The notes: generated from the sequence alone by a model not told the origin. Counted from the first letter of the stretch, positions 8,445 through 29,800 are shown. The stretch: 32,000 nt of DNA from Gemmata obscuriglobus (GCF_008065095.1 NZ_CP042911.1:3060001-3092000); one strand, 5' to 3'. Numbers and translations are program-made.

Positions 8445-8487
8445 TGCCCGGTGCCCATCATCCTATGCCCGCTCCCGTGAGGCGACC

Positions 8488-9591
8488 GTGACCGAGCCGA
8501 CCGCCGATGCCCCGAGCCGGATCGAGTGCCGCGTGGACGACGGGTTCGCCGGCTGGCTGGCGGGGGCGAACGGGAGCCTCGCGGTGACCACGTACCAGGC
8601 GGGCAAGGTGGTGCTCGTCGGCTGGGACGGGCGCCGGGTGACGGTGCTGGCCCGCGACTTCCCCAAGCCGATGGGGCTGGCGGTCGACGGCCCGCGGCTG
8701 CTCCTGGCGACCCGGCACGAGGTGGTCCTCCTGGCCGACGCCCCGGCCCTGGCCGCGGACTTCAAGCCGGACGAGCCCGGGCGGTACGACGCGCTGTACC
8801 TGCCGCGCACCCGGTACTGCACCGGCGACCTGAACGTGCACGACGTGGCGGTCGGGGCGGACGGCCCGTGGGTCACCGCCACTCGGTTCTCGTGCCTGGC
8901 CCGGCTGAGCCACGCGTTCAGCTTCGTGCCGGCGTGGCGCCCGCCGTTCGTGTCGGACACGGTGCCCGAGGACCGGTGCCACCTGAACGGCCTGGCGCTG
9001 GTGGACGGGCGGCCGCGGTACGTGACCTGCCTGGGCACCACCGACGCCGCCGGGGCGTGGCGCGGGAAGAAGGCGGACGGCGGGGTGCTGGTGGACGTGG
9101 CCGACGGCAGCGTGCGGCTCCGCGGGCTGTCGATGCCGCACTCGCCGCGGTGGCACAACGGCGCGCTGTGGCTGCTCGACTCGGGCCGGGGCGCGCTGCT
9201 GCGTGCGGACCCGGAGCGGGGCACGCGCGAGGCGGTGTGCGGGCTGTCCGGATACCTGCGCGGGCTGTCGCTGGTGGGGCCGTACGCGCTGGTCGGCCTG
9301 TGCCAGATCCGCGAGAAGCACATCTTCGGCGGGCTCCCGGTGCAGCAGACGCACCCGGCGCTGCTGTGCGGGGTCGCGGTGGTGGACACGCGGACCGGAG
9401 CGCGGGTCGGGTTGCTCGAGTTCACGGCCGGGTGCACCGAGGTGTTCGAGGTCGCGTGGCTGCCCGGGGTGCGGCGGCCGATGCTCCTGAACCCCGCTCA
9501 CCCGGCTCAGACCGACGCGTTCACCGCCCCGGCCTTCAGCTACTGGCTCCGACCCGCGAACGCGCTGCCGGAGCCACCGGCAGTGCCTTGA
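8488..9591 (+). CDS. TIGR03032 / DUF4915-like conserved hypothetical protein (predicted beta-propeller-like)
   Basis: GTG start at 8488, preceded by GAGG (8479-8482). 367 aa. The motifs CHLNGLALVDGRPRYVTCLG, MPHSPRWHNGALWLLDSGRG, YLRGLSLVGPYALVGLCQIREKHIFGGLPV and LCGVAVVDTRTGARVGLLEFTAGCTEVFEV match my recollection of the TIGR03032 family, which has no known function. Confidence 0.7.
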   Translation: MTEPTADAPSRIECRVDDGFAGWLAGANGSLAVTTYQAGKVVLVGWDGRRVTVLARDFPKPMGLAVDGPRLLLATRHEVVLLADAPALAADFKPDEPGRYDALYLPRTRYCTGDLNVHDVAVGADGPWVTATRFSCLARLSHAFSFVPAWRPPFVSDTVPEDRCHLNGLALVDGRPRYVTCLGTTDAAGAWRGKKADGGVLVDVADGSVRLRGLSMPHSPRWHNGALWLLDSGRGALLRADPERGTREAVCGLSGYLRGLSLVGPYALVGLCQIREKHIFGGLPVQQTHPALLCGVAVVDTRTGARVGLLEFTAGCTEVFEVAWLPGVRRPMLLNPAHPAQTDAFTAPAFSYWLRPANALPEPPAVP

Positions 9592-9596
9592 GGCGG

Positions 9597-9623
9597 GTGC
9601 ACGGGGTGGGAGGTCCGTGGCAC
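9597..9623. terminator. Possible bidirectional hairpin between convergent genes (no U-tract)
   Basis: gtgcacgg (9597-9604) pairs with ccgtggcac (9615-9623): 8 bp with one bulge and a 10-nt loop. It sits in the 38-nt gap between the stop at 9589-9591 (+) and the stop at 9630-9632 (-). Confidence 0.2.
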
Positions 9624-9629
9624 CTCGCA

Positions 9630-12600
9630 TCAGTCGAGGCCTGCGGGATTACTTTCAGGCCCGCTCGCGGACCCGTGGGACAAGAGCGCCTCGAGGTTGC
9701 GCCGCGCCTCCGCGTTGTTCGGGTCCACGACGAGTACTCCACGGAGCGCCGCCTCGAGCGCCGCGGGCGCCGCGCCGGCCGCCACCCGCGCGTGGACGAG
9801 CGCCACCCGCGGCCCCCGTGCCCCCGGCTGCTCTGCGACGGCCGCTTCGAGCACCGCGGCCGCCCCCGCGTGGTCCCCCCGCGCCGTCTTCCACCGGGCC
9901 TCCAGCACGGCCCCTTCGGCCGCCCCGGCCGGACCCAGGCTCCGGAGCGCGGCCGCCTGGCGTGCCACCGCCGCGCCGTCCCCGGCCTTGATCGCGGTCT
10001 CACCCAGCCCCAGCAGAGCGGGGGCGAATTGCGGGTCCTGGGCCAGCGCCGCCCGCCACAGCTCCTCGGCCTCACCCGCGCGTCCGTGCTCCAACAGCAG
10101 CACCGCCAAATTGTGCCTCCCGTGGACCGTCCGCAGGCCGGTGTCCACGCTCGCGAAGTGCGGCCCCTCGGAACCGCCGATCAGCTCCCGGTACAGGTGC
10201 TCGGCGCCGCCGGGGTTGCCGGCCTCGCGCGCGTACCCGGCGGCAAGGAACAGGAGCTCGGCGTCGGCCGGGTAGTGCTCGCGCCCGCGGCGACACGCGG
10301 CGACGGCCCCGGCCCGGTCGCCGCTCGCGCGGCGGCACCGGGCCAGCAGGGCGAACGCCTTCCGAACGATCGAGTCCCGCGGGTGCGACGCGGCCAGGCT
10401 CCGCTCGAGCGCCCGCGCCGCGGCCACGACGTCGCCCCGCTCGTGGAGGACGCACCCCAGGTTAAAGAGGGTGAACGGGTCGCCCGGGCGCTCGGCCTCG
10501 TCCAGGCCCAGCAGTCGCAGGTCCCGGTCCAGCTTCCGGCGCCGCACCGCCGGGTCCACGTACCCGACGTGCCGCACCGTCACGTCCGCCCACCGCACGT
10601 CGGCGCCGGTGGCACGCAGGGCCGGCAGGATCTGCTCGTGCACCCGGTACGTCCACCGGTGCGCCGGGTGCCGCCGGAACAGCCGCACGTGGTCCACGGC
10701 GGTGCCCCCGCTCCCGAGGCCGTCGGGCACGCACAGGCACCGCAGCACGAACGCCGCGTTGCCGGCCGGCAGCTGCTGGAGTAGAGCGCGGAGCTTCTCC
10801 CGGCCCGCGCCGTCCAGCCGGTCGTCGGCGTCCATCCAGAACGCGTAGTCCCCGGTGGCCGCATCCAGGGCCGCGTTCCGCGCCGCCGCGAAGCTGTCGG
10901 CCCACGGGAAGGTTCCGATCACGCACCCGAACGACTTCGCCACCTCGACCGTCCGATCGGCGGACCCGGTGTCGATCACCACGGCCTCGTCGACCAGGTC
11001 CCGGACGCCCTCAAGGCACGCGCCCAGGTTGTGCGCCTCGTTCCGCACGATCATGGTCAGCGACACGCGAGGCCGCCCGGCCACTGCGGGGACCGCGGGC
11101 ACCGCGGCCGGCGGCTCGGCACGGGGCGGGTTTGCCCCCGGGGACGGGACCGGGTTCCGGAACCGGACCGGCGTGCGCGCCCCCAGCACCCGGACGCGGT
11201 CCTCGACCGCGGCCGCCGTCCGGGCCCAGCTCCATCCCAGCGCCGCGCGGCGACCGGCCGCGCCCCGCGCCGCCCGCGCGGCGGCGTCCGAAACGGCCTC
11301 GCGCAGGACGGCCACCAGAGCGCCGGGGTCCGGTTCCAGCCACCACGGGAACCCGGCCGTAGGCCACCCCCCGACCTCCTCCCGCTCAAAGTACCGGACC
11401 CGGGCGGGCACGCGCCACCCGGCCGCCGGGGGCACGAACTCGTCGGTCGGCCCGCCCGCGGTGACCACGACCGGTAGCCCGCACGCCATCGCCTCCAGGA
11501 CCGGGAGGCCGAACCCCTCGCCCCGGTACGGGTGCGTCAGGACGTCGCACGCGGCGAACAGTCGCGGCACGTCGACGTCCGCAAGCTCCCCGGTCAGGTA
11601 TAGTACCTCAGGGCCGCCGGGAGTCGCCTGGGCCGCCCGGACCAGCGCCTCGGCGGTCTGCCCCCGGTAGAAAGTGCCGGCGCCCATCTCCTTCACCACC
11701 AGGCACACGTCGTCGGCGGCGGTGAACGCCCTCTGGTACGCCGCGAGCAGCGCGTCGAACCCCTTGCGCGGGATGGTGCCGCCCACGAACAGCAGTTTCA
11801 CCCGTTTGGCCGTGCGTAGCGAGAGCGGGGCGAGCCCGGGCCGGAATCGCTCCGGGTCCACGCCCGGCGGGACCAGCGCGACCCGCTCCTCGGGCACCCC
11901 GGACGCGACAAACGCCCGGAGCACCGCCCGTGAGTACGCCCACACCTCGTCCACGCCCTCGACGATGGGTCGGACCCAGGCCCGGGGAAGCCGGCCGAAC
12001 TCCCACGGCTGCATCAGCACCAGCGGCTCGCTGCCGACCGGTGCGGAGAAGTCCGGCGGCCACCGGTGCCGCACGTGTACCGCCCGGTTCGGAGCCCGCT
12101 GTGCGAGAGCCGCCAGCTCCGGCGGGAGCGGCACCGCGGTGCCCCCGAGCGGGCGCGCGAGCCCGACCGCGTGCCCCCGCGCCACCAGTTCGGCGCACAC
12201 GGCCCGGTTCACACGGGCCAGCGAGTGAACCGCGTCCAGCTCCCCGTCCCAGGCGACGGCCACCCGCCCGCTGTCCGTTCCGGCGGTCGCCCCAACCCCC
12301 TCGCCCTTGATCAGGAACGCCACCCGGGTCCCCGTGACCCCGTAGACCGGTTCCGGGAACCCGCCCGCCCACGCGGCCCACTCGCCGTCGAATAATTCCG
12401 GCGGGTCGGGCCAGATCAGACACCCGCCGGGCCGCAGTGCGTTGTACGCGCCAACCGCGTGCGACCGGCCGGGCGTTGGGGTGCTCCCGGTCCCCACGAT
12501 CGCGAGATCGAGCGGGGCCAAGTTCCCGACTTCGAAGTGATCATTGGTGGCACCGACGAACCGCATCCCCTGGGCGGTGCCGATGCGGTTCCGTGCGCGG

Positions 12601-14567
12601 GCGACCGGACCGAGCGGGTCGCCGGCCGGTGCCCCCAGCACGTAGACGGCCGCGTCGGGCGGAGCGATCGCGGTCACGTCGGCGCTCAGGCGCCCGGCCG
12701 CGGTTCCAATCGCCAGCACTCGGCGCGGAGCGAAGTGGGCGACCAGCGCGAGCACGACGCGCACGTCTGCTGGCGGAACGAGGGCACCCGGCGGTTCGGC
12801 CACCTCGACGCTACCGAAACGGGCCGTAAACGTGTCCGCGGTGAGGCGCACGAACGGGCTTCGCCCCCCCTCTAACGGCGCGGGCGCCGGGGGCGGGTGC
12901 AACTGTTCGGCCGCGGGTCGGGACGTTTCGAGCGGCACCAGGGGCTCCCCCGTGAGCCCGGTCGCGTTCGCCAGGAGCGCCTGCCCGTGGCGAACGCACG
13001 CGGCTTCGGCGGTGCGGCCGAGTACCGCCAGCGCCTCGACCAGGTGCGTCGCGCTGGCGGCGTCGAACGGATCGGCCTCGACCGCAACCCGGAGCCGTTC
13101 GACCGCATCGGCGGCCCGCCCGGTCCTTAGTAGTGCAAGCCCCAGAGCTGCCTGCAGGTGCGGCTGTTCCGGGCAGCATGCGGCTGCGGCCTCGTGATCC
13201 GACACACCGCTGGTCAGCTCGGCGATCAGTTCGAGCGCCCGACCGCGTAACAGCCGCGCCTTCTCCTGTCGCTCAGCCTCCGCGTCGTCCGGGTGGTCGT
13301 ACCCGGCCCGGTTCCACCCGACACGGACCCAGTCGAACGGTCCCGAGTACGGAACGCAGTCGGCCTCTGCCACAGTCAACGCGGGACGCGCCTTCAGTTC
13401 GTCGACCGCCGCCCGGGCCACATTCACGGCCTCCTCGGCGCGCCCGAGGGCGACCAGCGCGAGCGCGCGGCCGACGGCCGAAACGCGGTTGCCGGTACCC
13501 GCCGCGACCGCCAGGTGCAGTTCCGCGCCGGCATCCGGCCGCGCCAATACCCCGAGGGCGTGGTGGTCGGCTGCGGCCGTCAGGTCCGCCTCCAGTACCG
13601 GATCGCTGTCCGGTCCGTCGGACGCCGCCTGTTGCCATACGCGGCCGGACAGTGACAGCTGCGTCGCACTCCGGAACCGTCGGGCGGCTCGGTCACGCAC
13701 CTCGTCCCACCCTGCCGCACCGGCGGCGACCGCGGCCTCCACCAGTGCGTCGAACGCGAGCGGCCGTACCCGGTCCCGGGCGGCAGCGGCGATCGTCCGC
13801 CGCCCCCCTTCATCGGTCAACAGCCTCCCGACCACCGCCTCGAGATCCGCTTCCGTATACGTCACGCACTCGGTCTCGGGTTCGAGTGAACTCCGGGCGT
13901 GGTCGCCCCTGGCTCGCTGAAGCACCACCGCACCGGCCGCCGCAGCCTCCAGCGCCCGCGGGTCGTACGAGCCCAGAACTTCACTCACAACCACGAGCTT
14001 GCTGCGCCGCAGTCGCGCTCGGTACTCGGCTCCGGGTTCTGCGGCGGTGACCTGCACCCGGACCCGCTCGCCTAAGGTGGCCAGTCGCCCGAAGTCCGGA
14101 GGCCATGCATCTCGGGCGGCTGATTCCCGACGTCCGACGATGAGAACGTCGATGTCCCGCTCGGCCTCCGGGGCCTCAATTTCCGCCCGGAAGTGCCGAT
14201 CAAGGCCGAACAGGTTGGCGGCCCGTACGGGGCCGATTCCGGCCCGCCGCAACCGGTCCGCCGAATGTGCGTCTGTAAGCACCAGATCGGCCAGGGGCAG
14301 CAGGTGCCGTAACCCGCTCCAGAACAAGCGCGTGTCTCGGGCCAGGACGACCACCGGGACCGGCGCGGCCCACACCCACGCGGGCACGCTCGCACGTTCG
14401 GGCCACACAAGCACCGCCTCAGGGAGCTGACCGGCACGCGCTTCGACCTCGTTCCAATTTGCGGCGCGAGCAGAAAAAACGGCCCACGCGCCGCTGCCGA
14501 CCGGCGTGTGTAGGTACCGATCGAAAAAGATGGGGTCGTCACTCGGGCCGAACAGGAACCGGGCCAT
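9630..14567 (-). CDS. Multidomain glycosyltransferase fusion enzyme: GT1-like N-domain, TPR, class-I methyltransferase-like fold, GT4, GT2, C-terminal TPR
   Basis: Track ORF 9630..14600 begins at GTG. The in-frame ATG at 14567 (MARFLFGPSDDP) follows GAGG with a 5-nt spacer. GT4 part: KLLFVGGTIPRKGFDALL...THPYRGEGFGLPVLEAMACGLPVVVT (~12270-11300). GT2 part: VSLTMIVRNEAHNLGACLEGVRDLVDEAVVIDTGSADRT...YAFWMDADDRL (~11070-10400). MTase-like part: RRVLAIGTAAGRLSADV...LRPGGCLIWPD (~12800-12300). TPR-like helices lie at ~13650-12950 and ~10400-9680. Confidence 0.85.
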   Translation of the reverse strand: MARFLFGPSDDPIFFDRYLHTPVGSGAWAVFSARAANWNEVEARAGQLPEAVLVWPERASVPAWVWAAPVPVVVLARDTRLFWSGLRHLLPLADLVLTDAHSADRLRRAGIGPVRAANLFGLDRHFRAEIEAPEAERDIDVLIVGRRESAARDAWPPDFGRLATLGERVRVQVTAAEPGAEYRARLRRSKLVVVSEVLGSYDPRALEAAAAGAVVLQRARGDHARSSLEPETECVTYTEADLEAVVGRLLTDEGGRRTIAAAARDRVRPLAFDALVEAAVAAGAAGWDEVRDRAARRFRSATQLSLSGRVWQQAASDGPDSDPVLEADLTAAADHHALGVLARPDAGAELHLAVAAGTGNRVSAVGRALALVALGRAEEAVNVARAAVDELKARPALTVAEADCVPYSGPFDWVRVGWNRAGYDHPDDAEAERQEKARLLRGRALELIAELTSGVSDHEAAAACCPEQPHLQAALGLALLRTGRAADAVERLRVAVEADPFDAASATHLVEALAVLGRTAEAACVRHGQALLANATGLTGEPLVPLETSRPAAEQLHPPPAPAPLEGGRSPFVRLTADTFTARFGSVEVAEPPGALVPPADVRVVLALVAHFAPRRVLAIGTAAGRLSADVTAIAPPDAAVYVLGAPAGDPLGPVARARNRIGTAQGMRFVGATNDHFEVGNLAPLDLAIVGTGSTPTPGRSHAVGAYNALRPGGCLIWPDPPELFDGEWAAWAGGFPEPVYGVTGTRVAFLIKGEGVGATAGTDSGRVAVAWDGELDAVHSLARVNRAVCAELVARGHAVGLARPLGGTAVPLPPELAALAQRAPNRAVHVRHRWPPDFSAPVGSEPLVLMQPWEFGRLPRAWVRPIVEGVDEVWAYSRAVLRAFVASGVPEERVALVPPGVDPERFRPGLAPLSLRTAKRVKLLFVGGTIPRKGFDALLAAYQRAFTAADDVCLVVKEMGAGTFYRGQTAEALVRAAQATPGGPEVLYLTGELADVDVPRLFAACDVLTHPYRGEGFGLPVLEAMACGLPVVVTAGGPTDEFVPPAAGWRVPARVRYFEREEVGGWPTAGFPWWLEPDPGALVAVLREAVSDAAARAARGAAGRRAALGWSWARTAAAVEDRVRVLGARTPVRFRNPVPSPGANPPRAEPPAAVPAVPAVAGRPRVSLTMIVRNEAHNLGACLEGVRDLVDEAVVIDTGSADRTVEVAKSFGCVIGTFPWADSFAAARNAALDAATGDYAFWMDADDRLDGAGREKLRALLQQLPAGNAAFVLRCLCVPDGLGSGGTAVDHVRLFRRHPAHRWTYRVHEQILPALRATGADVRWADVTVRHVGYVDPAVRRRKLDRDLRLLGLDEAERPGDPFTLFNLGCVLHERGDVVAAARALERSLAASHPRDSIVRKAFALLARCRRASGDRAGAVAACRRGREHYPADAELLFLAAGYAREAGNPGGAEHLYRELIGGSEGPHFASVDTGLRTVHGRHNLAVLLLEHGRAGEAEELWRAALAQDPQFAPALLGLGETAIKAGDGAAVARQAAALRSLGPAGAAEGAVLEARWKTARGDHAGAAAVLEAAVAEQPGARGPRVALVHARVAAGAAPAALEAALRGVLVVDPNNAEARRNLEALLSHGSASGPESNPAGLD

Positions 14568-14600
14568 TCTCGCCTCGGACTGTGAGTCTACTCTCCGCAC

Positions 14601-14880: not shown

Positions 14881-17800
14881 ATGTGGTCCTGCGCGTGTCG
14901 CAGGAATAAACCCCAACCCATCCCGCCCATGCCCCGCCGCATCCGCCTGTGGATCGACCCGTTCGCCGCCCTCATGGACCTGCGTGCGTTCGTCGCCGGA
15001 CGATGCCGACGCGCCGCGGCGCCGCTGACGCGTCTGTTCGCCGCACCGGGGAAAATTGACCCGCAGCCCCTTCTGGCGAAGCCCGAGCTGCGCCCGATGG
15101 ATTGGCGGAACCCGCCCTCGGAGACCCTCAGCGCGGCCGCCATACCGCTGGCGGCGACGGCCGCCGCCGCAACGATCGCGGTGTACGCGCTGGCCGACTG
15201 GCAAGCGGCCGAGCAGGTGGCCGCGGCCCAGGTCGGGGCCGGGGGCGGTGGGGGCGGGCCGGTCGACGGTTACGCCGACTGGGCGCCGACGCTTGCCGAA
15301 CCGGCGGCAACCCTAGACCAAGCAACCGGTTCCGTTGCACCAGCCGACGACGAATCCGACTTAACACCGCGAGACGGGGCCGACCTCGCCTTGGACGGAG
15401 CCGGTTCGTCCGAAGGCGACTTCGATTCGTTCGGCCCGGCCGTCGACTCGTACGCCGGTGCCGAGTGGTTCGGTGGTACAGGAGCGGGCGGTGGCGACCA
15501 ACCGGAGCCGTTCGGCGGTGCATTTAATGGCATCGCTGTCACCGACACAATACCGGACCCGGTCAGCGGTGTGCCGCCGGTTTTAACCGGAACTGAGCCC
15601 CAGAACTTGGTCGGCTCGGATACGCCGGGAACCGGCAACACCGGCCCGGGTGCGACACCGCTCCCGGGCGACGCGTTGACGCCCGCGAGCGCCTCGGGTG
15701 CCGAGCACCCGAGCCCCAGCTCCCCGACGGCCAACTTACCAGGCGACGCAGGCACGGAGCGCCCGCCGACGCTCGGGGCTGTCTCTCTGAGCCTCGACCC
15801 CACGTTCTTCGCCTCTGCAGTCACCCCCGACTCGGCGCCCGGCGCCGATCCGGTAACGATCACCCCGGCGGTGAGTCCGCCGGTCACCCCGCCAACCAAT
15901 CCCGAGCCGGTCAGCCCGCCCGTCACCCCCGGGCCGGTCAGCCCACCCACGTCTCCGCCGCTCCCCCCCGAGCCGGTGAGCCCGCCAACGTCTCCGCCAC
16001 TCCCCCCCGAGCCGGTCAGCCCGCCGGTCAGCCCGCCGGTCAGCCCGCCAACGTCTCCGCCGGTCAGCCCGCCGGTGAGCCCACCCACGTCTCCGCCGGT
16101 CAGCCCGCCGGTCAGCCCGCCGGTCAGCCCGCCGGTCAGCCCGCCGGTCAGCCCGCCGGTCAGCCCGCCGGTCAGCCCGCCGGTCAGCCCGCCGGTCAGC
16201 CCACCCACGTCTCCGCCGGTTATCGGAGACCGCGTGTGGAACGACACGAACGGCAACGGGATTCAGGATGGGGGTGAACCGGGGTTAGCGGGTGTTCTCG
16301 TGCGCATGTACGACGAGAACTCGGAATTTTACGCTAGCACGGTCACAGACTCCAACGGCGGCTACGCGTTTACAGGTGTTGGCGCGGGCTACTATCAGCT
16401 TCAATTTCAGTTGCTAACAGGTTACCAGTTCTCGCCTGCGAACGCGGGCAGTGACGACGCGGTCGACAGCGACGCCGACCCGCTCAGCGGCTTTTCCAAC
16501 TTCTTCTTTGTGACCTACGGAGCAGGGAACACCACCATCGACGCGGGCATGCGTCCGACGAACCCCCCGGTAGTCCCACCAACTACCCCGCCGGTGGTCC
16601 CACCGACCAGCCCGCCCCCGCCCGGATCCGACGTTCGGGCCAACACTTACACCTCCAACTATCAGACCGTACCGGCTGTGGCGAGCGATGCGGACGGCGA
16701 CTTCGTCATCGCCTGGATGAGTGATGGTCAGGATGGTAGCGGGTACGGGGTCTACGCCCAGCGGTACGCAGCCAACGGTACACCGGTCGGGAACGAGTTC
16801 CGCGTCAACACGACCACCCTCGGTGACCAGGGCTCACCATCGGTCGCGATGGACGCGGACGGCGACTTCATCGTCACTTGGCAGAGCTACGGACAAGAGG
16901 GCACCTATGGGAATTATTACGGCCACAACTTGGGAATTTACGCCCAGCGGTACTCGGCCAGTGGGGCGGCTGTCGGCTCCGAGTTCCGGGTCAACACGTT
17001 CACCTACGGCCTCCAGTTCCAACCATCGGTAGCGATGGACGCGGACGGCGACTTCGTCATTGCCTGGGCGAGTGGCGGGCAGGGGCCCGGGAGCAACTGG
17101 TATGACGTCTACGCCCAGCGGTACTCGGCCAGCGGCGCCGCGCTCGGCTCCGAGTTCCGGGTCAACACGTACATTACCAGCAGTCAGATGGACCCGGCGG
17201 TGACGATGGACGCGGACGGCGACTTCGTCATCGCCTGGGAGAGCCAAGGCCAGGACGGCAGTGTGGGCGGGATCTACGCCCAGCGGTACACGGCCGGCGG
17301 CGCCGCGCTCGGGTCCGAGTTCCGGGTCAACACGTACACCACAAACCAGCAGATGGGCCCGGCGGTAGCCGCGGACGCGAACGGGGGGTTCGTTGTCGTC
17401 TGGCTGAGTTCCGGTCAAGAGGGTAGTGCGTCGAGGGTCTACGCCCAGCGGTACGCGGCCAACGGCACCGCGCTCGGGTCCGAGTTCCGGGTCAACACGT
17501 ACACCGGCGGTCATCAGAGCTCACCGTCGGTGGCGGTGGACGCGGACGGCGATTTCGTCGTGACCTGGCAGAGCTACGGACAGGACGGCAGCAGGTACGG
17601 AGTCTGGGCTCAGCGGTACAACTCAACCGGCACCGCTGTCGGGTCCGAGTTCCGGGTCAATACGTACACCGCCGGCGATCAGATGTTCCCGACGGTGGCG
17701 GTGGACGCGGACGGGGATGCCGTGGTCGCCTGGCAGAGCGCCGCCCAGGACGGCAGCGGCAACGGCATCTACTTCGCCCTGTTGGGCGGCGGTAGCTCCC

Positions 17801-20800
17801 CTCCGCCGGTCGTTCCGCCCACCAACCCACCACCGGCGGGACCGGAGGTTCGCGCCAACACGCACACCACGGGCCACCAGGTCGGAGCGTCGGTGGCAAC
17901 GGACGCGGACGGGAACTTCGTGGTCGCCTGGACGAGCCAAGACCAGGACGGCAGCGGGACCGGGATCTACGCCCAGCGGTACGCGGCCAACGGGATGCCC
18001 CTGGGGGGCGAGTTCCGGGTCAACACGTACACCACCGGCCACCAGGCCGGAGCGTCGGTGGCGATGGACGCGGACGGGGACTTCGTGGTCGCCTGGGCGA
18101 GCGCGGGGCAGGACGGCAGCGGATATGGGATCTACGCCCAGCGGTACGCGGCCAGCGGGGTGCCCCTGGGGGGCGAGTACCGGGTCAACACGTTCACCAC
18201 CGGCAACCAGACCGAACCGTCGGTGGGTGTGGATGCGGACGGGGATTTCGTGGTCGCCTGGCAGACCTACGTACCGGGGTCCGGGCTCGGCGGGTACGAG
18301 ATCCAGGCCCGGCGGTATTCGGCCAGCGGTGCCGCGCTCGGCTCCGAGTTCCGGGTCAACACGTACACCACCAACGACCAAGCGATTCCGTCGGTGTCTG
18401 TGGCAGCGGGCGGAAACTTCGTGATCGCCTGGCAGAGCTACGGCCAAGACGGTAGCGGGACTGAGGTGTACGCCCGACGGTATTCGGCCGGCGGTGATCC
18501 TTTGGGCACCGAGTTCCGGGTCAACACATACACTGACGGTCACCAGGTAGCCCCATCAGTCGGCCTGGACGCGAGCGGGAACTTCGTCGTCGCCTGGCAG
18601 AGCAGTGGGCAAGGTGACTGGGGGTGGAGGATTTACGCCCGGCGGTACTCGGCCGGCGGTACCGCGCTCGGTTCCGAGTTTCGCGTCGGCGAGTACACCA
18701 CCGGCTACCAGGCTGACCCGTCGGTAGCGGTGGACGCGGACGGAGACTTCATCATCTCCTGGACGAGCGCCGGGGAAGACGGCAGCGGCAACGGCATCTA
18801 CGCCCAACGGTACAGTTCGGCCGGCACGACGCAAGGTACGGCACTTCGGGTCAACACGTACACCGCCGGCGATCAGATGTTCCCGGCAGTGGCGGTGAAC
18901 GCGGATGGGGACGCGGTGGTCGCCTGGCAGAGCGACGGCCAGGACGGCAGCGGCAACGGCATCTACTTCACCCTGTTGGGCGGTGGCAGCTCGTCCCCAC
19001 CAGTCGTTCCTCCAACGGTTACGATCTCGGCGACAGGCGCGGGCGCGGGCGAGCCGTCGAGCACGGGGATGTACCGGATTTCGCGCACCGGCACCAGCGG
19101 CGACCTGGCCGTCACGTTCGTGCCGTCGGGCACCGCGGCACGGGGCGCCGACTACACGTTGAGCGTGGGCGGGGTGCCGGTGGCCGGCAACCAGGTCACG
19201 ATCTACAGCGGCCAGTCGTTCGTCGACGTGCTGCTCACCCCCGTCGACGACGCGGTGAGCGAGCCCACCGAGACCGCGGTGCTCACCCTCCAGGGCAGCT
19301 CCGTGTACTCCCTCGGGGCCGCGTATGCGGCCACCATCAACATCACCGACGACGATCCGTCGTTGCCTCCTCCGACGGTTACGATCTCGGCGACAGGCGC
19401 GGGCGCGGGCGAGCCGTCGAGCACGGGGATGTACCGGATTTCGCGCACCGGCACCAGCGGCGACCTGGCCGTCACGTTCGTGCCGTCGGGCACGGCCGCG
19501 TCGGGCGCCGACTACACGTTGAGTGTGGGCGGGGTGCCGGTGGCCGGCAACCAGGTCACGATCTACAGCGGCCAATCATTCGTCGACGTACTGCTCACCC
19601 CCGTCGACGACGCGGTGAGCGAGCCCACCGAGACCGTGGTGCTCACCCTCCAGGGTAGCTCCGCGTACACCGTGGGCAGCCCGGCCGCCGCCACCGTCAG
19701 CATCACCGACAACGACCTGCCGGCGGTCACGGCCGCGGCCCTCGACGCCACCGCCGGCGAGCCGTCGAGCACGGGGATGTATCGGATCTCCCGCACCGGC
19801 CCGCAGGCAGGGGCGCTGGAGGTCCGTTTCGCGCTCTCGGGCGCCGCCACGCCGGGCGCCGACTACACGCTGAGCGTGGGCGGGGTTCCCGTGGCGGGCG
19901 ACACGGTCACGATCCAGGACGGGCTGGGTTTCGTCGACGTGCTCCTCACCCCCGTCGACGACGCGACGGCGGAGTTCACCGAGGACGCGGTGCTGACGGT
20001 CCTGAGCGGCACCACGTACACCGTCGGCAGCCCGGCGGCCGCCACCGTCAGCATCACCGACAACGAGCCGCCGGCGGTCACGGTCACGGCTTTCGATGCT
20101 ACCGCCGGTGAGCCGTCGGACACCGGCACGTACCGCATCTCCCGCACCGGGGCGTTGGCCGGCGCGCTGCCGGTGACGTTCGTGCTGTCGGGTACGGCCG
20201 CATCGGGCGCCGACTACACGCTGAGCGTGGGCGGGGTGCCGGTGACGGGCAACACGGTCACGATCCAGGACGGGCAGGAGTTCGTCGATGTGCTCCTCAC
20301 CCCCATCGACGACGGGGTAGCGGAGTTTACCGAGACCGCGGTGCTCACCCTCCAGAGTAGCTCCGCGTACACCGTGGGCAGCCCGGCCGCCGCCACCGTC
20401 AGCATCACCGACAACGACCTGCCGGCGGTCACGGCCGCGGCCCTCGACGCCACCGCCGGCGAGCCGTCGAGCACAGGGATGTATCGGATCTCCCGCACCG
20501 GCCCGCAGGCAGGGGCGCTGGAGGTCCGTTTCGCGCTCTCGGGCGCCGCCACGCCGGGCGCCGACTACACGCTGAGCGTGGGCGGGGTTCCCGTGGCGGG
20601 CGACACGGTCACGATCCAGGACGGGCAGGGTTACGTCGACGTGCTGCTCACCCCCGTCGACGACGCGACGGCGGAGTTCACCGAGGACGCGGTGCTGACG
20701 GTCCTGAGCGGCACCACGTACACCGCGGGCAGCCCGGCGGCCGCCACCGTCAGCATAACCGACAACGAGCCGCCGGCGGTCACGGTCACGGCCTTCGATG

Positions 20801-23800
20801 CTACCGCCGGTGAGCCGTCGGACACCGGCACGTACCGCATCTCCCGCACCGGGGCGTTGAGCGGCGCGCTGCCGGTGACGTTCGTGCTGTCGGGTACGGC
20901 CGCATCGGGCGCCGACTACACGCTCAGCGTGGGCGGGGTGCCGGTGACGGGCGACACGGTCACGATCGAGGACGGGCAGGAGTTCGTCGATGTGCTCCTC
21001 ACCCCCATCGACGACGGGGTAGCGGAGTTTACCGAAGGCGCGGTGCTCACCCTCCAGGGTAGCTCCGCGTACGCCCTCGGCAGCCCGGCCGCCGCGACGG
21101 TCCTCATCGCCAGTAGCGACGTTTTCCCGACGGTTACGGTCTTTGCAACCGACGTCAGTGCGGGTGAGCCGGCGAACACCGGCGCGTACCGGATCTGGCG
21201 CACCGGCACCAGCGGCGCGCTGCCGGTAACGTTCGTGCTGTCGGGCACCGCCACGCCGGGCGCCGATTACACGCTCAGCGTGAACGGGGTACCAGTAACG
21301 GGCAATCAGATCACGATCCAGAACGGGCAGGAGTTCGTCGATGTGCTCCTGACCCCCGTCGACGACGCGGTGAGCGAGATCGCCGAGACCGCGGTGCTGA
21401 CGGTCCTGAGCTCCACCACCTACACCGTCGGCAGTCCGGCCGCGGCCGTCGTCGGCATTGACGACAACGACACCCGCCCGACGGTCACGGTGTTCGCAAT
21501 CGACAGCGGCGCGGGTGAGCCGTCGAACGCGGGCGCGTACCGGATCACGCAGTTCGGCGCCGGCGGCCCACTAACGGTTACGTTCGTACTTTCGGGCACC
21601 GCCGCCCGGGGCGCCGACTATTCGCTGGTTGTAGACGGGGTGCCGGTTGCGGGCAACCAGATCACGATCCCGGCCGGGCAGTCGTCCGTGGACGTGGTGC
21701 TGATCCCGGCCGACGACGGCATCGTGGAGACCCCCGAGACCGCAATGCTGGCGCTGCAGGCCGGCGCCACGTACACGATCGGTGCTCTCGCCGCCGCAAC
21801 GGTCACCATCACCGACGACGACACCCTCGCGAACACCACGCCGTCTGTCACCGTGACGGCCACGGACGCGGACGCGGGCGAGTCGGCAAACTCAGGCACG
21901 TACCGGATCTTCCGCACCGGCCCAATCGGGGTCGAACTGGTTGTCGCGGTTGCGCTCTCGGGCACCGCGACGCGAGGCGCCGACTACACGCTCAGCGTGG
22001 GCGGGGTGCCGGTGGCGGGCAACCAGATCACGATCCCGGCCGACGCGTCGTTCGTGGACGTGCTGCTCACCCCAGTCGACGACGCGGCGAGCGAGGTTCC
22101 CGAAGCCGCGACGCTCACCGTTCAGGCGGGCGGCGGGTACGCCGTCGGCGCACCCGCCGATGCGACCGTCGTCATCGCGGACAACGACCCGGCGGTCACG
22201 CCGCCGGCCGGTTTCAAGGAAGGCGAGCTGATCGGCGCGGCCGACCCGTTCGGTGCGCTACTCGCCACGTTTACTCACCCGGACCTGTTCAGCGACCCGA
22301 GCGACTTCGAGGCGGCCGTCAGTTGGGGCGACGGGACCACCAATAACACCACCAGCGGGGTCGAGATCGTGCCCCTCGGGGGCGGCCTGTTCGAGGTCCG
22401 GGCGAAGCACGCGTACCGGGAGCGGAGTGCCGCCGGGAACCCGTACCAAGTGGTGATTACGGTGACCACGCGGGCCGACGGCAGCACCGCGTCGGCGTCC
22501 GGCAGTTTGGCCATTGCCGACGCGGCCCTGACCGGCCGGTCGCACAACTTCACGGCCGGGCTGAAGGTGCCGTACGAGGGCGCCATCGCGGTGTTCGAGG
22601 ACGCCAACACGCTGTCCCCGGCGGCCAACTTCGAGGCCCAGGTGCAGTGGGGCGACGGCACGCAGGAAAAGCTCACCGGTGCGTCCATCCGCCCGCTCGG
22701 GGCCGGCGTGTTCGCGGTGGTCGGCAAGCACGCGTACCAGGTGGCCGGGGCCCAACCGTACACGGTGACTGTGCTGATCCAGGACGTCGACGGCAGCGCC
22801 CAGGCGGTGACCAGCACGGCCACCGTCGGCGCCGTCGCCCTGGTCGCCAGCGATTACGGCGTGAACGTGACCGCCACGGAGGGGACCGCGTTCAGCGGCG
22901 AGGTGGCCTGGTTCACCACCCTCGACACGAATTTCGATCCGGCGACGGTCCTGGCCGATGTGAATTGGGGGGACGGCACTGCGATCGATTTCGGCCGTCC
23001 TGTCGTGGCGCGGGACGGCGGCGGGTTCACGGTCGCTGGCACCCACCTGTACGCTCGCTCAGGTGGGTACGAGATTCAGGTCACGATCCGTCCCGCAGCG
23101 GGAGGCAATAACGGGGCACGAACGATCAAGGGATCGGCTCTGGTCCTGGGGGGCCAAATCACGGCCACCGGGCTCCCAATTACCGTGCGCGAAGGTACCG
23201 GGCTCGGGTCAGGGCAGGTCATCGCAACCTTCACAGATGCAGTGGCCGGTACGACCGCAACAGACTACTCGGCCTGGGTCGACCTTGGGAACGGTGACGT
23301 AGCGTCCGCTCCGATCTCTAAAAACGGGAACCACTTCGAGGTTAGGCTCGCCAGAGGGTACGAGCAAAACGGGTCGTACACCGCCACAGTTACCATTCGC
23401 GACAACCTTGGCGGCAGCACCGCGATAGTGCAGAGTGATGTTACAGTAATAAATGCAGAACTGGCAATCGAATATGTTAATTTGATCGGCAGCGGGTACG
23501 GCGACTTGTCATTCAGTATGCGTGTTGGCTTCAAGGAAAATCCGTACGATCGCGGCGAGAACTTTACCGCCACCGTCAATTGGGGCGATGGCACCCCGGC
23601 GTCTATGCATCGCGTGTACGGATACGGCGATCATTATAACGGAAATGCGTTTTTCTCATCATACAATCCAGCTGGCGATGGAATTGATGAAATCTACTAT
23701 TGGCTAACACCAGGCCAGTTCGAGGCCCTCCCGCGGCACACCTATGCAGCCGCTGGCACGTACATAATTACCATCACGATCACCCCCGACGACGGTCCGG

Positions 23801-26800
23801 CAAAAGTTTATACGCCTTGGACCTGGGGGCTACCTGTAATTTTGCCTCAATCTCAACCGATATCGAACACTGCGCCAATCGTCACTGCATTGCCGATCAC
23901 AGCAGTTGAAGGACAGCGCTGGGATGGTAAGATCGCTCAGTTTGTTGATCCATTCCCCGAAATGACAGGCACCTTTAGCGTATCTGTTGATTGGGGCAAC
24001 GGACATTATGCCGCAAACGTTCCGTGGTATCAGTTTTACCAAATAACCAACACGGGATACGGAACGTACGATATCTCAACATCGTATCGCTATAATTACG
24101 ATGGCATATACCAAGTAAAGGTGAGAGTTTATAAAACCTACTCAAACACTAATCAAATAGACACATCGGCGGAGAGTACTACAACAGCTATTGTCAGCGA
24201 GGCGCCATTCCGGGCCACCTCGCTGTCGGTGACCGGTGCCTCAATGGCTGGCACGGTCGGGCAGTCATTCTCCGGGGTCGTTGCGACCGGCACTCTACGC
24301 GATCCAGCGTACGGTACCGTGACCGCTTACATCAACTGGGGCGACGGTTCCGCGGAGCAGCAGGTCGCGGTGATTGCTGGAGCAACCTACTCCGTTTCGG
24401 GCACACACACGTACGCCTCTGAGGGTCTGTACAATGTGCGCGTTCGTGTGGAACAGCGGCCACCGAACGTGCAGACGCAACTGGTCCACTCGGCGAGCAC
24501 GACCAACACGATCAAGGTGACCGTCCCAGCTGTGTCGATTGCGGCCGCGCAGGATCCGCTCGCGGCAACTCAGAGCACGCCACCCGTCAACGTCGCACTG
24601 GCCGTCATCACCGACCCCCGGCCGGGGGTTACGGCGTCTGAGTACACGGCCGACATTTATTGGGGTGATGGGACCAAAACCCTCGGTACGGTGGCGGGAA
24701 CGGGCGGAACGTTCACCGTCAGCGGTAGCCACACGTATGGTGCGTCGGGGCCGTTTATCGCAGCCGTCGTCGCGCGCCGCGGAGCGGAGGTGTACGCGGT
24801 GCGGTTGGGAGTGACGGTCGCCCCGCCTCCCCCCCCACTGCCGGCCCCGACCAACGATCTGGTCGATTTGTTCGTGGACCCGGTTATCGCCCAGGGCGCG
24901 TACCAGGCCCAGGATCTCGTCGTGGCCCGGTTCCGAATCCGGGGCCAGGGCCAGTCGGTCGCGGGCTTCGCGGCGGAGATCCACTGGGGCGACGGGTCCG
25001 CGCCGACCCGCGGGCGGATCGAAGCGCTCCCGAGCGAGGACGGGGAGCTGCTGCTGTACCAGATCGTCGGTAGCCACCAGTACCGCGCGACGGGGGTGTA
25101 CGACACCACCGTCACGTTGATCAGCCGGAGCGCGAGTTGCCCGGACACGGTTGGCACCGGCGTGGTCGTCGTCTTGTCAGGGGCGGTGAAGGGGTTCGAC
25201 CTTCAGACCAGTGTGAGCTCCGACCTGCGGGACGTGGTGGTAGGTGAGTTCACTGACCCGAGCGACCCTCCCGCCAGCACCTTCTCCGCCTCGGTCAATT
25301 GGGCAGGCTATCCACCCTCCTCAAGCCCGGCGCGGGTCGTGCGTTTTGGAGCGGGCCACTACTACGTCGTTGCCAGTCGCGGATACGCATCGGCGGGCCA
25401 GTACCAGTACCAGGTGAATGTGTCTAGTCCCGGAGGGCTGGCGACCGGATATGGTACTGTAGACGTGCGCCCAACGGCGGCCGGAGTGCTCTCGGTGCCG
25501 TACCGTATGGAGGTGCCGACCACGCCGCTCCAATGGGCCGCGTTTACGGTGAACAGCGAGAACATTCCAAACGAGATCATCGACCGCAGTTACATCGACT
25601 GGGGCGACGGCAGCCTGCGCCTCACGGGTGACCGCGGCCAGGTCTGGGGAGGACTGCCGCAGCGAAGTGACATCCTGCTGAGCGGCGCACACGTGTTTCG
25701 GCAAGACGGAGTGCTCACCGTCACCGGTGGCGCGGCTGACGACGTGGGCGACCCGTACGTAACCGACTCTTGGTCCCTGCCGGTCGCCACCGCACCGCAC
25801 CGGTTGGTGGGCACCCGTCCTGTGCTCGCGGCGCGTGAGGACCGGGCGATCGGGTCTATCCCGATCGCCACCTTCACAGACGAGGGAACAGAGGCCACCG
25901 TTGACCAGTTCCACGCCCGGATCGACTGGGGCGACGGGACCGAGCCGTCCGACGACGGCACGCGCATCGTGCGGATCGACGACCGGACCTTCGCGGTGTA
26001 CGCCGACCACACGTACAACCAGGTGGGCGACTTCGCGATCACGGTGCTCGTCCACAAGGACGCGCCCGACGGCGTCGACGACGACATGCTCGCCGGAACG
26101 ATGGTCGCCACGCTGAAGGCGAGGGTGACGGCCGACCAGGCCGGGGTTAGCCAGACCGGTGCGGAGTGGTTCGCGGCCCTCCAGGGACAGAGCACCGGTG
26201 ACATCGTGCTCGGGGCGATCGTCGATCCCGCCCTGGCGGCAAACGCAGCCGCCCTGTCCGTGAACTGGGGCGACGGCTCCGCGCCACAAGCGGGCGAGGT
26301 GTGGCTGCGCCAGACCGGCCCTACCTCGTTCGAGGTGCTCGGCCGTCACACCTACGCCCAGGCCGGGATCTACGACGCCAAACTGACCGTCACGGCCGGC
26401 CCGAAAGTGTTCACGCTCGGCGGGCTCGTGCCGGTGTACCGGGCCGCGCTGGACACCACCCAGCGGACGTCCGACCCGGACCGCGGGGACTGGGTGCAGT
26501 TGGGCACCGCCGCGGTGTCGCTCAACACCGGCGCGGTGACCGTCAGCCACCCGCTCGACTTCGACCTGAGCCCGGGCACCGCCGTCGGCCGCAGCCCGTC
26601 CCTGGTGTACAACTCGGGCACCGTAGACGTGCGCCCGACCGCCGAGTTCCAGCTCACCGGACTGGGCGAAGCCTCGCCCAGCGGAATCAGCGTGACGACC
26701 AGTTGGGCCGACCGCAAGGAGCAGCCGGCCGTCACGTTCGCGGTGACGCCCGGCGCGCAGTTTGCGAACTACCTGTTCGGCACCCAGTCCGCGTACGAGG

Positions 26801-29800
26801 TGACCGAGACCGGGGCGTACGACTGGCGGTCGCACGTCCAGATCGCGATGGGGGCGAACCGGGCCCCGATCGAGGTGGAGGTGAAGGACCGGTCGCTGAC
26901 GGTGGTGACCGAGGACCACCCGGAGGTGCCGGTGCCGGTCGCCCACGGGTGGGGCATTGCCGGCATCGACCGGCTGGTGTGGGAGTGCCACGGGGACGTC
27001 ATCTGGGTCACCGGCACCGGCGACGCCCGGCTGTTCGAGCGCCTCGACGGCACCGACTACTGGTCCGACGAGGACTTCGGCGCGCTCCAGCGGAACATGG
27101 ACGCGAACTCGCCCGAGTACAAGTCGTTCGTGTACACGGCGCGGGACGCGTCGAAAATGTACTTCAGCGCCGCCGGGCTGCTGACCAAGGTGGTGGACCC
27201 GCAGCAGTTCGTGGTCACCTACGGGTACGACGCCGCCGGGCGGCTGACCGGGGTGCAGACGCCGGACGGGGGCGTCACCGCCATCGCCTACACACCCACC
27301 CAGGTCACCATCACCGAGCCCGGCAACCGGACCGTCACTCTGAACGTCGCGGGCAAGACGCTGAACGCGATCCAGGACGTCGACTCGACCAAGCACCTGA
27401 GCGCGTACGCGGACGTCGATAAGACTGCCGGCACCCGCACGTTCGGGTACAGCGGGGACCGGCTGACGAGCGACACGTGGAGCCCGCTCCAGACCGGGAT
27501 CGCGTACGACAAGAACGGGATGGTGAAGTCGGTCGACCGAGGGCTCGGGACGGTTTACACGATCGTCCCGGCGGCGGCGCAATCACTGGCGACCACCAAC
27601 GACAAGCCGGCCGACGCCCGCACCGCGGTGGCGACCCTCAAGGACCCGATCAACCCGGTCACCACCTACACGTACGACGCCCGCGGCCGCACGCTCCGGG
27701 TCGACGCCCCGCTCGGCGCGCTCGACCGCTACCTGTTAAACACAGCGGGGGACGTGGTCTGGCACGCGGACCCGCTCGACCGCAAGACCGTGTTCGAGTA
27801 CGACTTCAACGGCGACCTGCGGACCGTGGTCAACCCGGACGAGACCGAGCGGTCGTACCAGTACCACCCCAAGTTCGGCACCGTCACCCGGGCCACCGAC
27901 GAGCTCAGCCGAGCGACCGTGTTCACCTACGACGGCACCACCGGCCTGCTCAGCACCGTCGAGGACGCGCTGCACAACGTCACCAAGTACGAGTACTACC
28001 CCGACGCCGACGGCGGCGGGACACGGGCCGACCGGCGGCTCCTGAAGACCGTGACCGACGCCCTCGGCCACGTGACCAGTTACGCGTACGACGAGCACCG
28101 CCGGGTGAGCCAGGTGATCGACCCCGCCGGAGGGATCGTCACCACCACCTACGACGCCGCCGGCAACCCGCTGAAGGTTCTGACCAACCCGTCGCTTACC
28201 GGCAACACGAGCGAGGTGCGCACCACCACCACCGTCTACGACGGGCGCAACCAGTTGGTCCGGGTGATCGACGCGCGGGGCAGCGTCACCAGCACCGAAC
28301 TCGCTCCCAGCGGGCTGGTCGACGCCGTCACCGACGCGCTCGGGCGGCGCACCACCTACGCGTACGACCGGCGCGGGCTGCTGACCGGGATGACCGAAGG
28401 CATCGCCCCGGCGGCCGGGCTACCGGCTGGGGTGCCGCCCGCCCAGCGGTCCGAGGCGCGCGTCTACGACACGGCGGGCAACCTCAAGTCCGTCACCAGC
28501 GGCCTGGCCCCGGCCAACCCCACCGTCACGATCGGCGGAGCGGCCGCACCGCTTTCGTACCAGCACCTCACCACTGTGACGTACGAATACGACGCGCTGA
28601 ACCGGGTCAAGGGGGTGTACGAGGGGGTGACCGGTGCGGGCGCGTACCTGCGCGGCACCGAGACCGCGTACGACCGGGCCGGGAACGTGCGGTGGACCCG
28701 CTCCGGGCTGTCCACCACCGGGCAGCCGAAGGTTCTGTACTCCCGGCTCGGATACGACCTCCAAGACCAGCTCGGGCAGGTGATCGAGGCGTTCGGCCAC
28801 GCCCGCCTCCAGCGCACCACCACCACCGAGTACGACGACGTCGGGAACGTGCTGTCGGTGACCGACCCGCTGGGCCACGTGACCAGCTACGGGTACGACG
28901 AACTGAACCGGACGACCGTCACCTACGAGGCGTTCGGGACGAGCGACCAGCGGTCCACCGAGACCCACTACGACGCCGTCGGCAACGTCCTCTGGACCCG
29001 GGACCCGCGCGGCACCGTCACCAGCTACGGGTACGACCCGGCGGATCGGGTGACGCGGGTGATCGAGGCGTTCGGGGACACCGGGCCGGGTGGGGTGCAG
29101 CGCACCACCACCATGCTGTACGACAAGGTGGGTAACGTGCTCGCGACGTGGGCCCCGCGGTACCACGACAACCAGGCCCCGCCGGCCGGGGAGCCGAAGC
29201 ACGTCGTCACCAGCTACGTGTACGACGGGCTGGACCGGCGGACTCAGGTGATCGAGGCGGTGAACGTCGCCCCCGAGCAGCTCGGGCACGCCAACCCGAT
29301 CACCACCACCACCTACGACGCGGTCGGGAACGTGGTGTCGGTGATCGACCCGCTCGGCCGCACCACCAGCTACGCGTACGACGCGCTGGACCGGCCGGTG
29401 GCCGCGTTCGAGGTGTGGCAGTCGAACGGGACCGCGGCCCGCACCACCCGCACCTGGTACGACGCCAGCGACAACGTCGTCCGCCGGCACGCCGCCATCA
29501 CGGCCAACGTGGGCGGTGCCGAATCGACCACGAACCAGCAACTGTCCACGTACGCGTACGACGCGGTGAACCGGCCGATCTCGTCGACCGTCGGCGAGCC
29601 CGAGCGGGCGGTGCCGCCGGGTGGCGCGCCGCTGCTGCGGCTCACCACCACGTCGGTGTACGACGCCGCCGACAACCTGATCGAGTCCGTCGACCCGGAC
29701 GGCCGGCGGACGAGCATGGGGTACGACGTGCTCGGCCGGCAGGTCGAGCTGGTTGAAGCGTTCGGGGACGCCGGGCCGGGCGGGGTGCAACGCACCACCA

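Follow-up and report, generated by a model that had tools for sequence, protein, structure and literature searches.

CylK has a propeller of seven blades with Ca2+ sites at every blade junction (PMC8916777), and BT3686 (GH145), LOR_107 (PL24) and PLSV_3936 (PL25) are likewise seven-bladed (PMC8377490). In integrins and the PVL lectin, an aspartate-rich motif of the A-B loop binds Ca2+ (PMC8023676). So-called 'highly repetitive' propellers arise repeatedly by amplification (PMC9218822). In this study, a 32,000-nucleotide (nt) stretch of DNA from Gemmata obscuriglobus (NZ_CP042911.1:3060001-3092000) was analyzed, which is referred to as the window and from whose first letter all positions are counted. 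A giant gene on its + strand encodes 14 repeat units in two blocks of seven. Our results point, with a probability of roughly 75%, to independent, closed seven-bladed beta-propellers that are extracellular and function as a non-catalytic binding module.

An initial annotation of this DNA had described 14 copies of a ~57-amino-acid (aa) unit in two blocks of seven. The motif scan ('[VFYL]R[VA][NG][TE]...') counted exactly 14 units, and both sequences quoted in that annotation were found verbatim. The units of block 1 started at nt 16633, 16798, 16984, 17155, 17320, 17485 and 17650, while those of block 2 started at nt 17848, 18013, 18178, 18349, 18514, 18679 and 18844. The observation was thus confirmed, with only the stated unit length slightly high, as most units were 55 aa long. 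Lengths of 55, 57 and 62 aa were found ten times, twice and once, respectively, and both terminal units stopped after GIYF[AT]LL. The pairwise amino-acid identities between the units ranged from 40 to 87%, were mostly 45–67% and averaged ~57% within a block. In addition, Tandem Repeats Finder identified separate 165-nt arrays at 16939-17758 (score 701) and 17856-18966 (score 729). Given these identities and the separately detected arrays, the repeats are not a product of chance. Judged by the identities among its blades, the repeat would stand near the 'highly repetitive' propellers described previously (PMC9218822).

Both blocks were modeled together with AlphaFold2 from a 90-sequence alignment. 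This twin model had a mean predicted local distance difference test score (pLDDT) of 91.7 and a predicted template modeling score (pTM) of 0.63, and pLDDT values <50 were found only in the inter-block linker and the C-terminal tail. For block 1 modeled alone, pLDDT and pTM were 92.8 and 0.92, respectively. Both models were all-beta, and each repeat contributed three strands of 7–9 residues and one short or split strand. When a single block was compared with the PDB by Foldseek, only propellers were found among the top 50 matches listed. The best structural neighbor of block 1 was CylK (7RON), with a template modeling (TM) score of 0.74, a root-mean-square deviation (rmsd) of 3.8 Å and a Foldseek E value of 7e-14. 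The TM scores were 0.60–0.64 with GH145 and related structures (5MUK, 5MVH and 4IRT), 0.56–0.57 with PL25 ulvan lyase and 0.48–0.52 with PL24. Six-bladed sialidases and NHL domains matched block 1 at TM 0.41–0.52, which was weaker than the top seven-bladed folds. Thus, the seven-bladed neighbors in the PDB, the four strand elements per repeat and the predominance of blocks of seven in the family all agree on the number of blades. The proposal that each block is a separate seven-bladed beta-propeller was supported at the level of these confident all-beta models and their best Foldseek neighbors. A beta-helix or another non-propeller fold, which the initial annotation had named as the outcome that would refute it, is not what AlphaFold2 gives.

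The strand positions were obtained by DSSP from the AlphaFold2 models. The three strands were 'QxxPSVAMDA', 'DFVVAWQS' and 'GIYAQRY', and a fourth element, 'xxGSEFRV', began five residues past the third strand and spanned the repeat boundary. In some repeats, the fourth element was a continuous 7-residue strand of the 'VGSEFRV' type (E119-125 and E231-237), and in others it was split ('E----EE'). In the blade proposed here, 'QxxPSVAMDA' would be the inner strand A, which would be joined by a tight A-B hairpin ('DADGD') to strand B ('DFVVAWQS'). The B-C loop ('xGQDGSGxG') would lead to strand C ('GIYAQRY'), and 'xxGSEFRV' would form the outer strand D across the junction with the next repeat. 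The segment 'NTYTTGxQ' would then be the long D-to-A crossover to the next blade. With strand D supplied by the next repeat, a block is expected to open with a lone '(D/E)VRANT' strand and to stop after strand C of repeat 7.

Several features of the block boundaries bear on how the ring is closed. In the DSSP assignment, the N-terminal VR was in a beta bridge, and the 'E----EE' pattern of the internal repeat junctions also occurred at the N-terminus of block 2 (residues 407 and 412-413 of the twin model). Similarly, the final residues of the inter-propeller linker followed the strand pattern of the inferred outer strand D in other repeats. The blocks of homologues also started with 'G.EF.VNT' and ended with 'YAQRY'. 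Judged by the pattern of secondary structure and by the conservation of the block boundaries, the N-terminal '(D/E)VRANT' segment most likely supplies the missing outer strand of blade 7 in the modeled fold, so that the ring would be closed by the usual 'velcro' mechanism with the N-terminal strand joining blade 7. The initial annotation, otherwise essentially right, had attributed the closure to a specialised last blade. That part probably does not hold: the last repeat is merely truncated after strand C. The 'GIYF[AT]LLGGGSS' with which it ends is a peculiarity of the window protein, and homologues have the normal YAQRY end.

The number of repeats per block was also assessed across the family. 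A homologue search with the 786-aa region covering both blocks gave 7,969 matches among 8,000 scored candidates. It listed only proteins of up to 1,375 aa, and the giant protein of the window was not among them. The domain co-occurrence derived from this search is therefore biased to shorter or fragmentary proteins. A search of representative proteins with the 14-repeat profile included members of up to 7,923 aa. Repeats were counted with a hidden Markov model (HMM) built from the 14 repeats in the 120 best homologues, where blocks that did not touch a protein end were regarded as internal. Among the 169 internal blocks, 127 contained seven repeats, 25 contained fourteen (two abutting sevens) and four contained eight. 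In an exhaustive search of 1.84 billion representative proteins, 43,718 clusters matched the 14-repeat profile at E ≤ 1e-3, of which 12,875 also did so at E ≤ 1e-30. In 98 of the best 150 representative proteins, the repeat count was a multiple of seven, up to 63. With looser thresholds, 241 contiguous runs of seven were found vs. one run of eight. The HMM of the 14 repeats was narrow and missed divergent blades, and a 12-aa gap rule applied to 128 proteins of the representative search fragmented blocks. At the level of these profile matches, seven per block is shown to be the family rule.

The two blocks of the window were closely related to each other. Units 7 and 14 were 87% identical in protein and 81% identical in DNA, the start of the linker included. 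The remaining six same-position pairs were 60–67% identical, and the other between-block pairs averaged 55%. Moreover, blocks 1 and 2 were reciprocal best BLAST matches (64.5%), above ~190 homologous blocks. Given the same-position identities and the reciprocal best match, the comparison supports either duplication of the whole seven-repeat module, as proposed previously, or concerted evolution of both blocks in this lineage. In the family as a whole, 100 of 174 paired blocks had their nearest relative in another protein, at the same index. Thus, the 7+7 arrangement predates the individual proteins in many lineages.

In the library copies searched, neither block reached the cutoff of any Pfam-A or NCBIfam model. 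The best Pfam signals were GH43 (26.6 bits vs. a cutoff of 32.2; E 5e-6) and BNR_4 (16.6 vs. 27.3). CbiG_N gave a whole-sequence score of 25.7 bits in block 1, with no single stretch significant. No match to the FG-GAP and VCBS models (PF01839 and PF13517) was found at E ≤ 1 for either block. NHL (PF01436) did not match the blocks of the window and reached E 0.45 in one homologue, and the TM scores of NHL structures with block 1 were 0.41–0.45, below those of the seven-bladed folds. The repeat consensus contained no SxDxGxTW motif of the Asp-box/BNR type, and BNR_4 and GH43 were both below their cutoffs. PF24051 (DUF7355) was considered as a dedicated family and rejected, as it was only a 'faint' precomputed match in many homologues and was absent from local scans at E ≤ 10. 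It also did not match the blocks of the window at E ≤ 1. Sequence searches of the PDB with the 786-aa region, a 72-sequence block profile and the 14-repeat profile returned nothing significant, and a full-text literature search on the repeat motif strings returned nothing relevant. In source records, the homologues were named 'hypothetical protein' or after neighboring domains.

Only the NCBIfam model NF053835 ('PDIAV motif-containing lipoprotein') gave a low E value, 1.4e-9 and 5e-9 at 36–38 bits vs. a cutoff of 90, and it is probably a distant relative with the same type of blade, judged by this similarity. Thus, the statement of the initial annotation that no named Pfam family could be attached to the repeat holds for the library copies searched, and mapping onto a characterised family such as FG-GAP or NHL was looked for and gave no model above cutoff. 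The description of the family as uncurated held in so far as no Pfam or NCBIfam model scored above cutoff, but it has to be qualified by a curated relative at E 1e-9.

The repeat might instead be a divergent member of the VCBS/FG-GAP (integrin-like) group, with the DADGD hairpin as a shortened Ca2+-binding DxDxDG A-B loop. The inferred A-B loop has an aspartate-rich motif followed by a hydrophobic strand that ends in W, and exactly this segment was aligned by hhalign, which paired 'DADGDFVVAW' with 'DGDGxADILW' when the blade profile was compared with the VCBS-type blades of two homologues, P0012 and P0065. The context of the repeat family also matches, as the VCBS core consists of secreted prokaryotic multi-propeller proteins with Ig-like domains (PMC8023676). 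The probability assigned by hhalign to this alignment was, however, only 1.9%, which speaks against VCBS relatedness. The FG-GAP and VCBS models of Pfam failed to match as described above, and the weak sequence matches and the fold neighbors lean to the Asp-box, GH43 and BNR_4 side. In addition, the inferred A-B hairpin reads D-A-D-G-D-F, which is DxDxD without the final G of DxDxDG. Membership of the VCBS/FG-GAP group is thus rather unlikely.

The two propellers are encoded within a + frame that has no stop codon from nt 14797 to nt 31998 (5,734 codons) and leaves the window, whose base composition is GC-rich (63–76%). ATG candidates for the start of the giant gene are at nt 14881, 14929, 14974 and 15097. 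Its features are as follows.

14881..31998, + strand: 5' part of the giant gene, >5,700 codons in the stop-free frame from 14797, which leaves the window

15127..15195, + strand: hydrophobic segment LSAAAIPLAATAAAATIAVYALA, read from the sequence as a candidate signal anchor or transmembrane helix

16011..16202, + strand: proline-rich (SPPV/SPPT)n spacer directly upstream of the SdrD-B domain, encoded by 16 tandem copies of a 12-nt unit

16222..16551, + strand: SdrD B-like domain (Pfam PF17210, E 8.5e-34)

16555..16632, + strand: proline-rich linker PTNPPVVPPTTPPVVPPTSPPPPGSD, which leads into propeller 1

16633..17784, + strand: predicted propeller 1, repeats 1–7, with strand C of repeat 7 (GIYFALL) as the final element

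17785..17847, + strand: inter-propeller linker GGGSSPPPVVPPTNPPPAGPE, 21 residues, mostly at pLDDT <50 in the twin model

17848..18978, + strand: predicted propeller 2, repeats 8–14, with the final residues GIYFTLL

19009..22206, + strand: about nine Calx-beta-like domains of 117 aa each (351-nt period, 8.9 copies), sub-threshold against Pfam Calx-beta

22204..26436, + strand: array of PKD-like domains with the motif WGDG[TSH] (ten motif matches)

26464..31998, + strand: YD/RHS repeat region, which extends past the window (TIGR01643 E 1.3e-73; RHS_core E 3e-20, below cutoff)

In the whole gene, TIGR01643 matched 11 stretches and PF05593 matched with E 5.8e-11. Given a domain order that ends in a YD/RHS region, the gene product is a giant RHS-type protein, presumably of the cell surface. 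In this YD/RHS protein, which exceeds 5,700 residues and has an N-terminal hydrophobic segment, both propellers would lie between the SdrD-B domain and the Calx-beta-like array, in the presumed extracellular stalk.

The copies at 19009-22206 resembled Calx-beta by eye, with motifs such as 'GTA..GADY' and 'DD..E', and they scored 15–21 bits against the Pfam Calx-beta cutoff of 27. For the 1,171-aa Calx-like stretch as a whole, no Pfam Calx-beta match was found at E ≤ 1. Some copies were near-identical in alternating pairs, which gave a 702-nt super-period and suggests recent tandem duplication of this array. The ten WGDG[TSH] motifs of the PKD-like array were mostly spaced by 106–113 aa. Pfam PKD_4 (E 5.7e-14) matched only four stretches, so most PKD-like copies are divergent. 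Upstream of the giant gene, three genes on the - strand (6339-14600) were divergently oriented. One product, of 1,656 aa, combines TPR repeats with several glycosyltransferase domains (GT1, GT2 and GT4), another is a DUF4915 protein, and the third, of 702 aa, has a GT41 (O-GlcNAc-transferase-like) domain in addition to TPR repeats. That these products might glycosylate the Ser/Thr/Pro-rich giant protein is speculation.

The initial annotation had suggested an HMM of the 14 repeats as a means to find the spread of the repeat and its partner domains, and the profile search described above revealed at least five bacterial phyla and adhesin-type partners. With one genome per species, relatives of the repeat were found in Planctomycetota, Cyanobacteria, Sericytochromatia, Bacteroidota, Alpha-, Beta- and Gammaproteobacteria, and Verrucomicrobiota. 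The carriers in Planctomycetota were Pirellulales, Planctomycetaceae, Gemmataceae, Tepidisphaerales, Kuenenia and Thermoguttaceae, while those in Cyanobacteria included Nostoc, Roseofilum, Allocoleopsis and Crinalium, and that in Verrucomicrobiota was Chthoniobacter. The usual partner domains were RTX, cadherin-like, dockerin, a T9SS sorting tail, SdrD-B and Ig-like. SdrD-B was shared by 12 of 248 sampled repeat-carrying proteins. When the YD, Calx-like and PKD-like segments of the window protein were searched by phmmer against the same 248 proteins, no similar segment was found. The propeller is thus not specifically RHS-associated, and its domain partners give it the appearance of a promiscuous extracellular module and not of a part confined to RHS proteins.

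The homologues P0012 and P0065 carried three VCBS/FG-GAP-like blades ('GDFDGDGKADILWRN...') between and after their two propellers (residues ~419-579 and the C-terminus). Three blades alone cannot close a ring, and these blades might constitute a separate propeller, either partial or oligomeric. In BFVD, the block 1 model matched giant-virus proteins at TM 0.66–0.78 with 12–21% identity, including a Fadolivirus 'NHL repeat' protein and collagen-repeat proteins, and structural proteins of cyanophages (S-PM2, S-ShM2 and S-TIM5) and Bacillus phage G matched similarly. Given these model matches in giant viruses and phages, similar seven-bladed modules may serve in viral surface or tail structures.

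The conservation of the repeat was compared blade by blade over 201 blocks. The consensus was identical in all seven blades, and no genuine blade-specific conserved position was found. Such uniformity speaks against a single, asymmetric active site. The residues common to all seven blades may thus be taken as structural. The least conserved positions were located in the D-A loop (10, 12 and 13) and around the B-C loop (29, 31, 37 and 38). The insertions in repeats 2, 3 and 10 were also located in the B-C loop. Conventionally, the top face of a propeller is made up of the D-A and B-C loops and is the face to which ligands commonly bind. In the predicted propellers, the top face would be the probable ligand-binding surface. 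The opposite face would bear the seven DxDxD hairpins, each a candidate site for Ca2+ or for a structural role. By analogy to the A-B loops of integrins and the PVL lectin, and to the Ca2+ sites around the propeller of CylK, the module is possibly Ca2+-stabilised. From these sequence patterns, the role of the propellers is most likely that of a non-catalytic extracellular binding or adhesion module that is widely reused in bacterial surface proteins.

The propellers could also be passive rigid spacers that extend the stalk and recognize nothing. They are embedded among repetitive stalk modules, namely the proline-rich spacer, SdrD-B, Calx-like and PKD-like domains, and their conservation is uniform and structural-looking. 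The variability, however, is concentrated in the inferred top-face loops instead of being even over the surface. Moreover, propellers are costly as spacers in comparison with Ig-like domains, and 7 or 7+7 units are retained in many architectures and phyla. A purely mechanical role is regarded as improbable.

A catalytic role has even less in its favor. As glycoside hydrolases, polysaccharide lyases or CylK-like alkylating enzymes, the propellers would act either on some target or on the envelope of the cell itself, which is suggested by the enzymes among the best fold neighbors (CylK, GH145, PL24/25 and sialidases) and by the sub-threshold Pfam matches to GH43 (E 5e-6) and BNR_4. However, the identical consensus in the seven blades of 201 blocks leaves no blade-specific residues for an asymmetric active site, the identities to the enzymes were only 9–17%, and no PDB sequence or profile match was obtained. 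Up to about nine tandem propellers were found in single proteins, and the partner domains were of the adhesin type. Thus, it is very doubtful that the propellers are enzymes, and the binding module remains preferred.

A flexible proline-rich linker would connect the two propellers, and each would behave as a bead of its own. This follows from the low pLDDT of the linker, the pTM of 0.63 for the twin model in comparison with 0.92 for the single block, and the spacing between blocks in homologues, which varied from ~5 aa to >220 aa. That all fourteen repeats constitute one unit, whether as one large ring or as a fixed, GH74-like clam of two propellers with a functional cleft, is hardly credible: the twin model did match the GH74 twin seven-bladed enzymes at E 1e-11, and 7+7 pairing is very common in homologues, but the GH74 matches had an rmsd of ~22 Å and TM scores of 0.27–0.31, so that only individual domains matched, the linker was at pLDDT <50, the pTM fell to 0.63 for the twin, the spacer of homologues can host inserted domains, repeat counts of 21, 35 and 49 were also found, and the frequency of 7+7 is biased by a query with 14 repeats. 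A fixed GH74-like twin unit was rejected on account of the poor superposition and the variable linkers.

The interpretation of the blocks as independent, closed and non-catalytic binding propellers is weakened by several points. The blade count, the velcro closure and the face assignment derive from DSSP strings, Foldseek neighbors and block statistics, and any ligand, metal or binding partner is hypothetical. The nearest solved structures are the enzymes named above (CylK, GH145, PL24/25 and sialidases), and the weak Pfam matches are to GH43 and BNR_4. The hairpin motif is DxDxD-F, not the canonical DxDxDG, and it is degenerate in repeats 5, 11 and 12. Finally, the C-terminus of the protein lies beyond the window, as would an RHS core end (PxxxxDPxGL) and any C-terminal toxin and immunity genes, and the YD repeats are the basis on which the whole protein is assumed to act as an RHS toxin.

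The family comprises tens of thousands of protein clusters that have neither a dedicated model in the Pfam and NCBIfam copies searched nor a solved structure detectable by sequence. As there is no dedicated model, such proteins are annotated as 'hypothetical' or by their neighboring domains. A family definition with a 55-aa blade, seven blades per domain, a probable velcro closure and variable top-face loops would improve the annotation of giant surface proteins, and the family offers structural biology a highly symmetric natural seven-bladed propeller. The repeat family is uncurated, but it is a well-known and ordinary kind of domain. Its value lies mainly in annotation and structural study, while the understanding of biological processes is unchanged. 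More tentatively, the repeat may define a very large propeller lineage of at least 43,000 clusters at 50% identity that is absent from the domain libraries searched. In this lineage, a DxDxD hairpin between strands A and B of every blade would give a ring of seven metal sites on one face, and together with a face of hypervariable loops this would make a general recognition scaffold for giant bacterial surface proteins, although we consider this rather improbable. Within the same lineage reading, the repeat could bridge the integrin/VCBS and Asp-box superclusters of propellers as their missing link.

Among the known systems, the C-terminal propeller of CylK (7RON/7ROO), a cyanobacterial Friedel-Crafts alkylating enzyme, has the same seven-bladed fold as that predicted for the window blocks, and the blade junctions of CylK carry Ca2+ sites. 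However, the identity is 16%, and PDB profile searches with the repeat do not find CylK. Moreover, CylK has only one propeller, and its active site is formed by a Ca2+ beta-roll domain to which this propeller is fused, whereas the window blocks are without a beta-roll partner, have near-uniform blades and are set in a giant surface protein. The GH145/BNR_4-type and PL24/PL25 propellers (BT3686 5MUK, 4IRT, 5UAM and 6BYT) also share the seven-bladed fold, with TM scores of 0.48–0.66 and a weak BNR_4/GH43 signal. Different from these, the scores of the window blocks are below the Pfam cutoffs, catalytic residues could not be mapped, and the blades of the window family are quasi-identical to each other.

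NF053835 is the only curated model with a significant E value, and the match covers up to ~260 profile positions. The probable counterpart of its 'PDIAV' motif is the 'PSVAV/PAVAM' strand of the repeat, which makes the same type of blade likely. This model, however, describes a stand-alone lipoprotein of ~458 profile positions and not a module of giant multidomain proteins, and its score against the window blocks is too low for equivalog membership. The integrin-like VCBS/FG-GAP propellers are also seven-bladed, extracellular and often present as several propellers in one protein, and they have an aspartate-rich A-B loop (PMC8023676). Different from them, the repeat is without the FG-GAP 'cage' motif and has DxDxD-F instead of DxDxDG.

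Similar to the window protein, the GH74 xyloglucanases have two consecutive seven-bladed propellers in one chain. The GH74 pair, however, packs into a fixed catalytic cleft, whereas the window pair has a flexible and variable linker and no predicted interface. Teneurins and the bacterial teneurin-like YD proteins contain a TTR domain, an NHL propeller and a YD shell. Different from these, the predicted propeller of the window is seven-bladed, duplicated and not of the NHL type, and ~2,500 residues of Calx-like and PKD-like domains lie between the propellers and the YD region. Similar to them, the window protein combines a prealbumin-like domain (SdrD-B), propellers and a YD/RHS region in one polypeptide.

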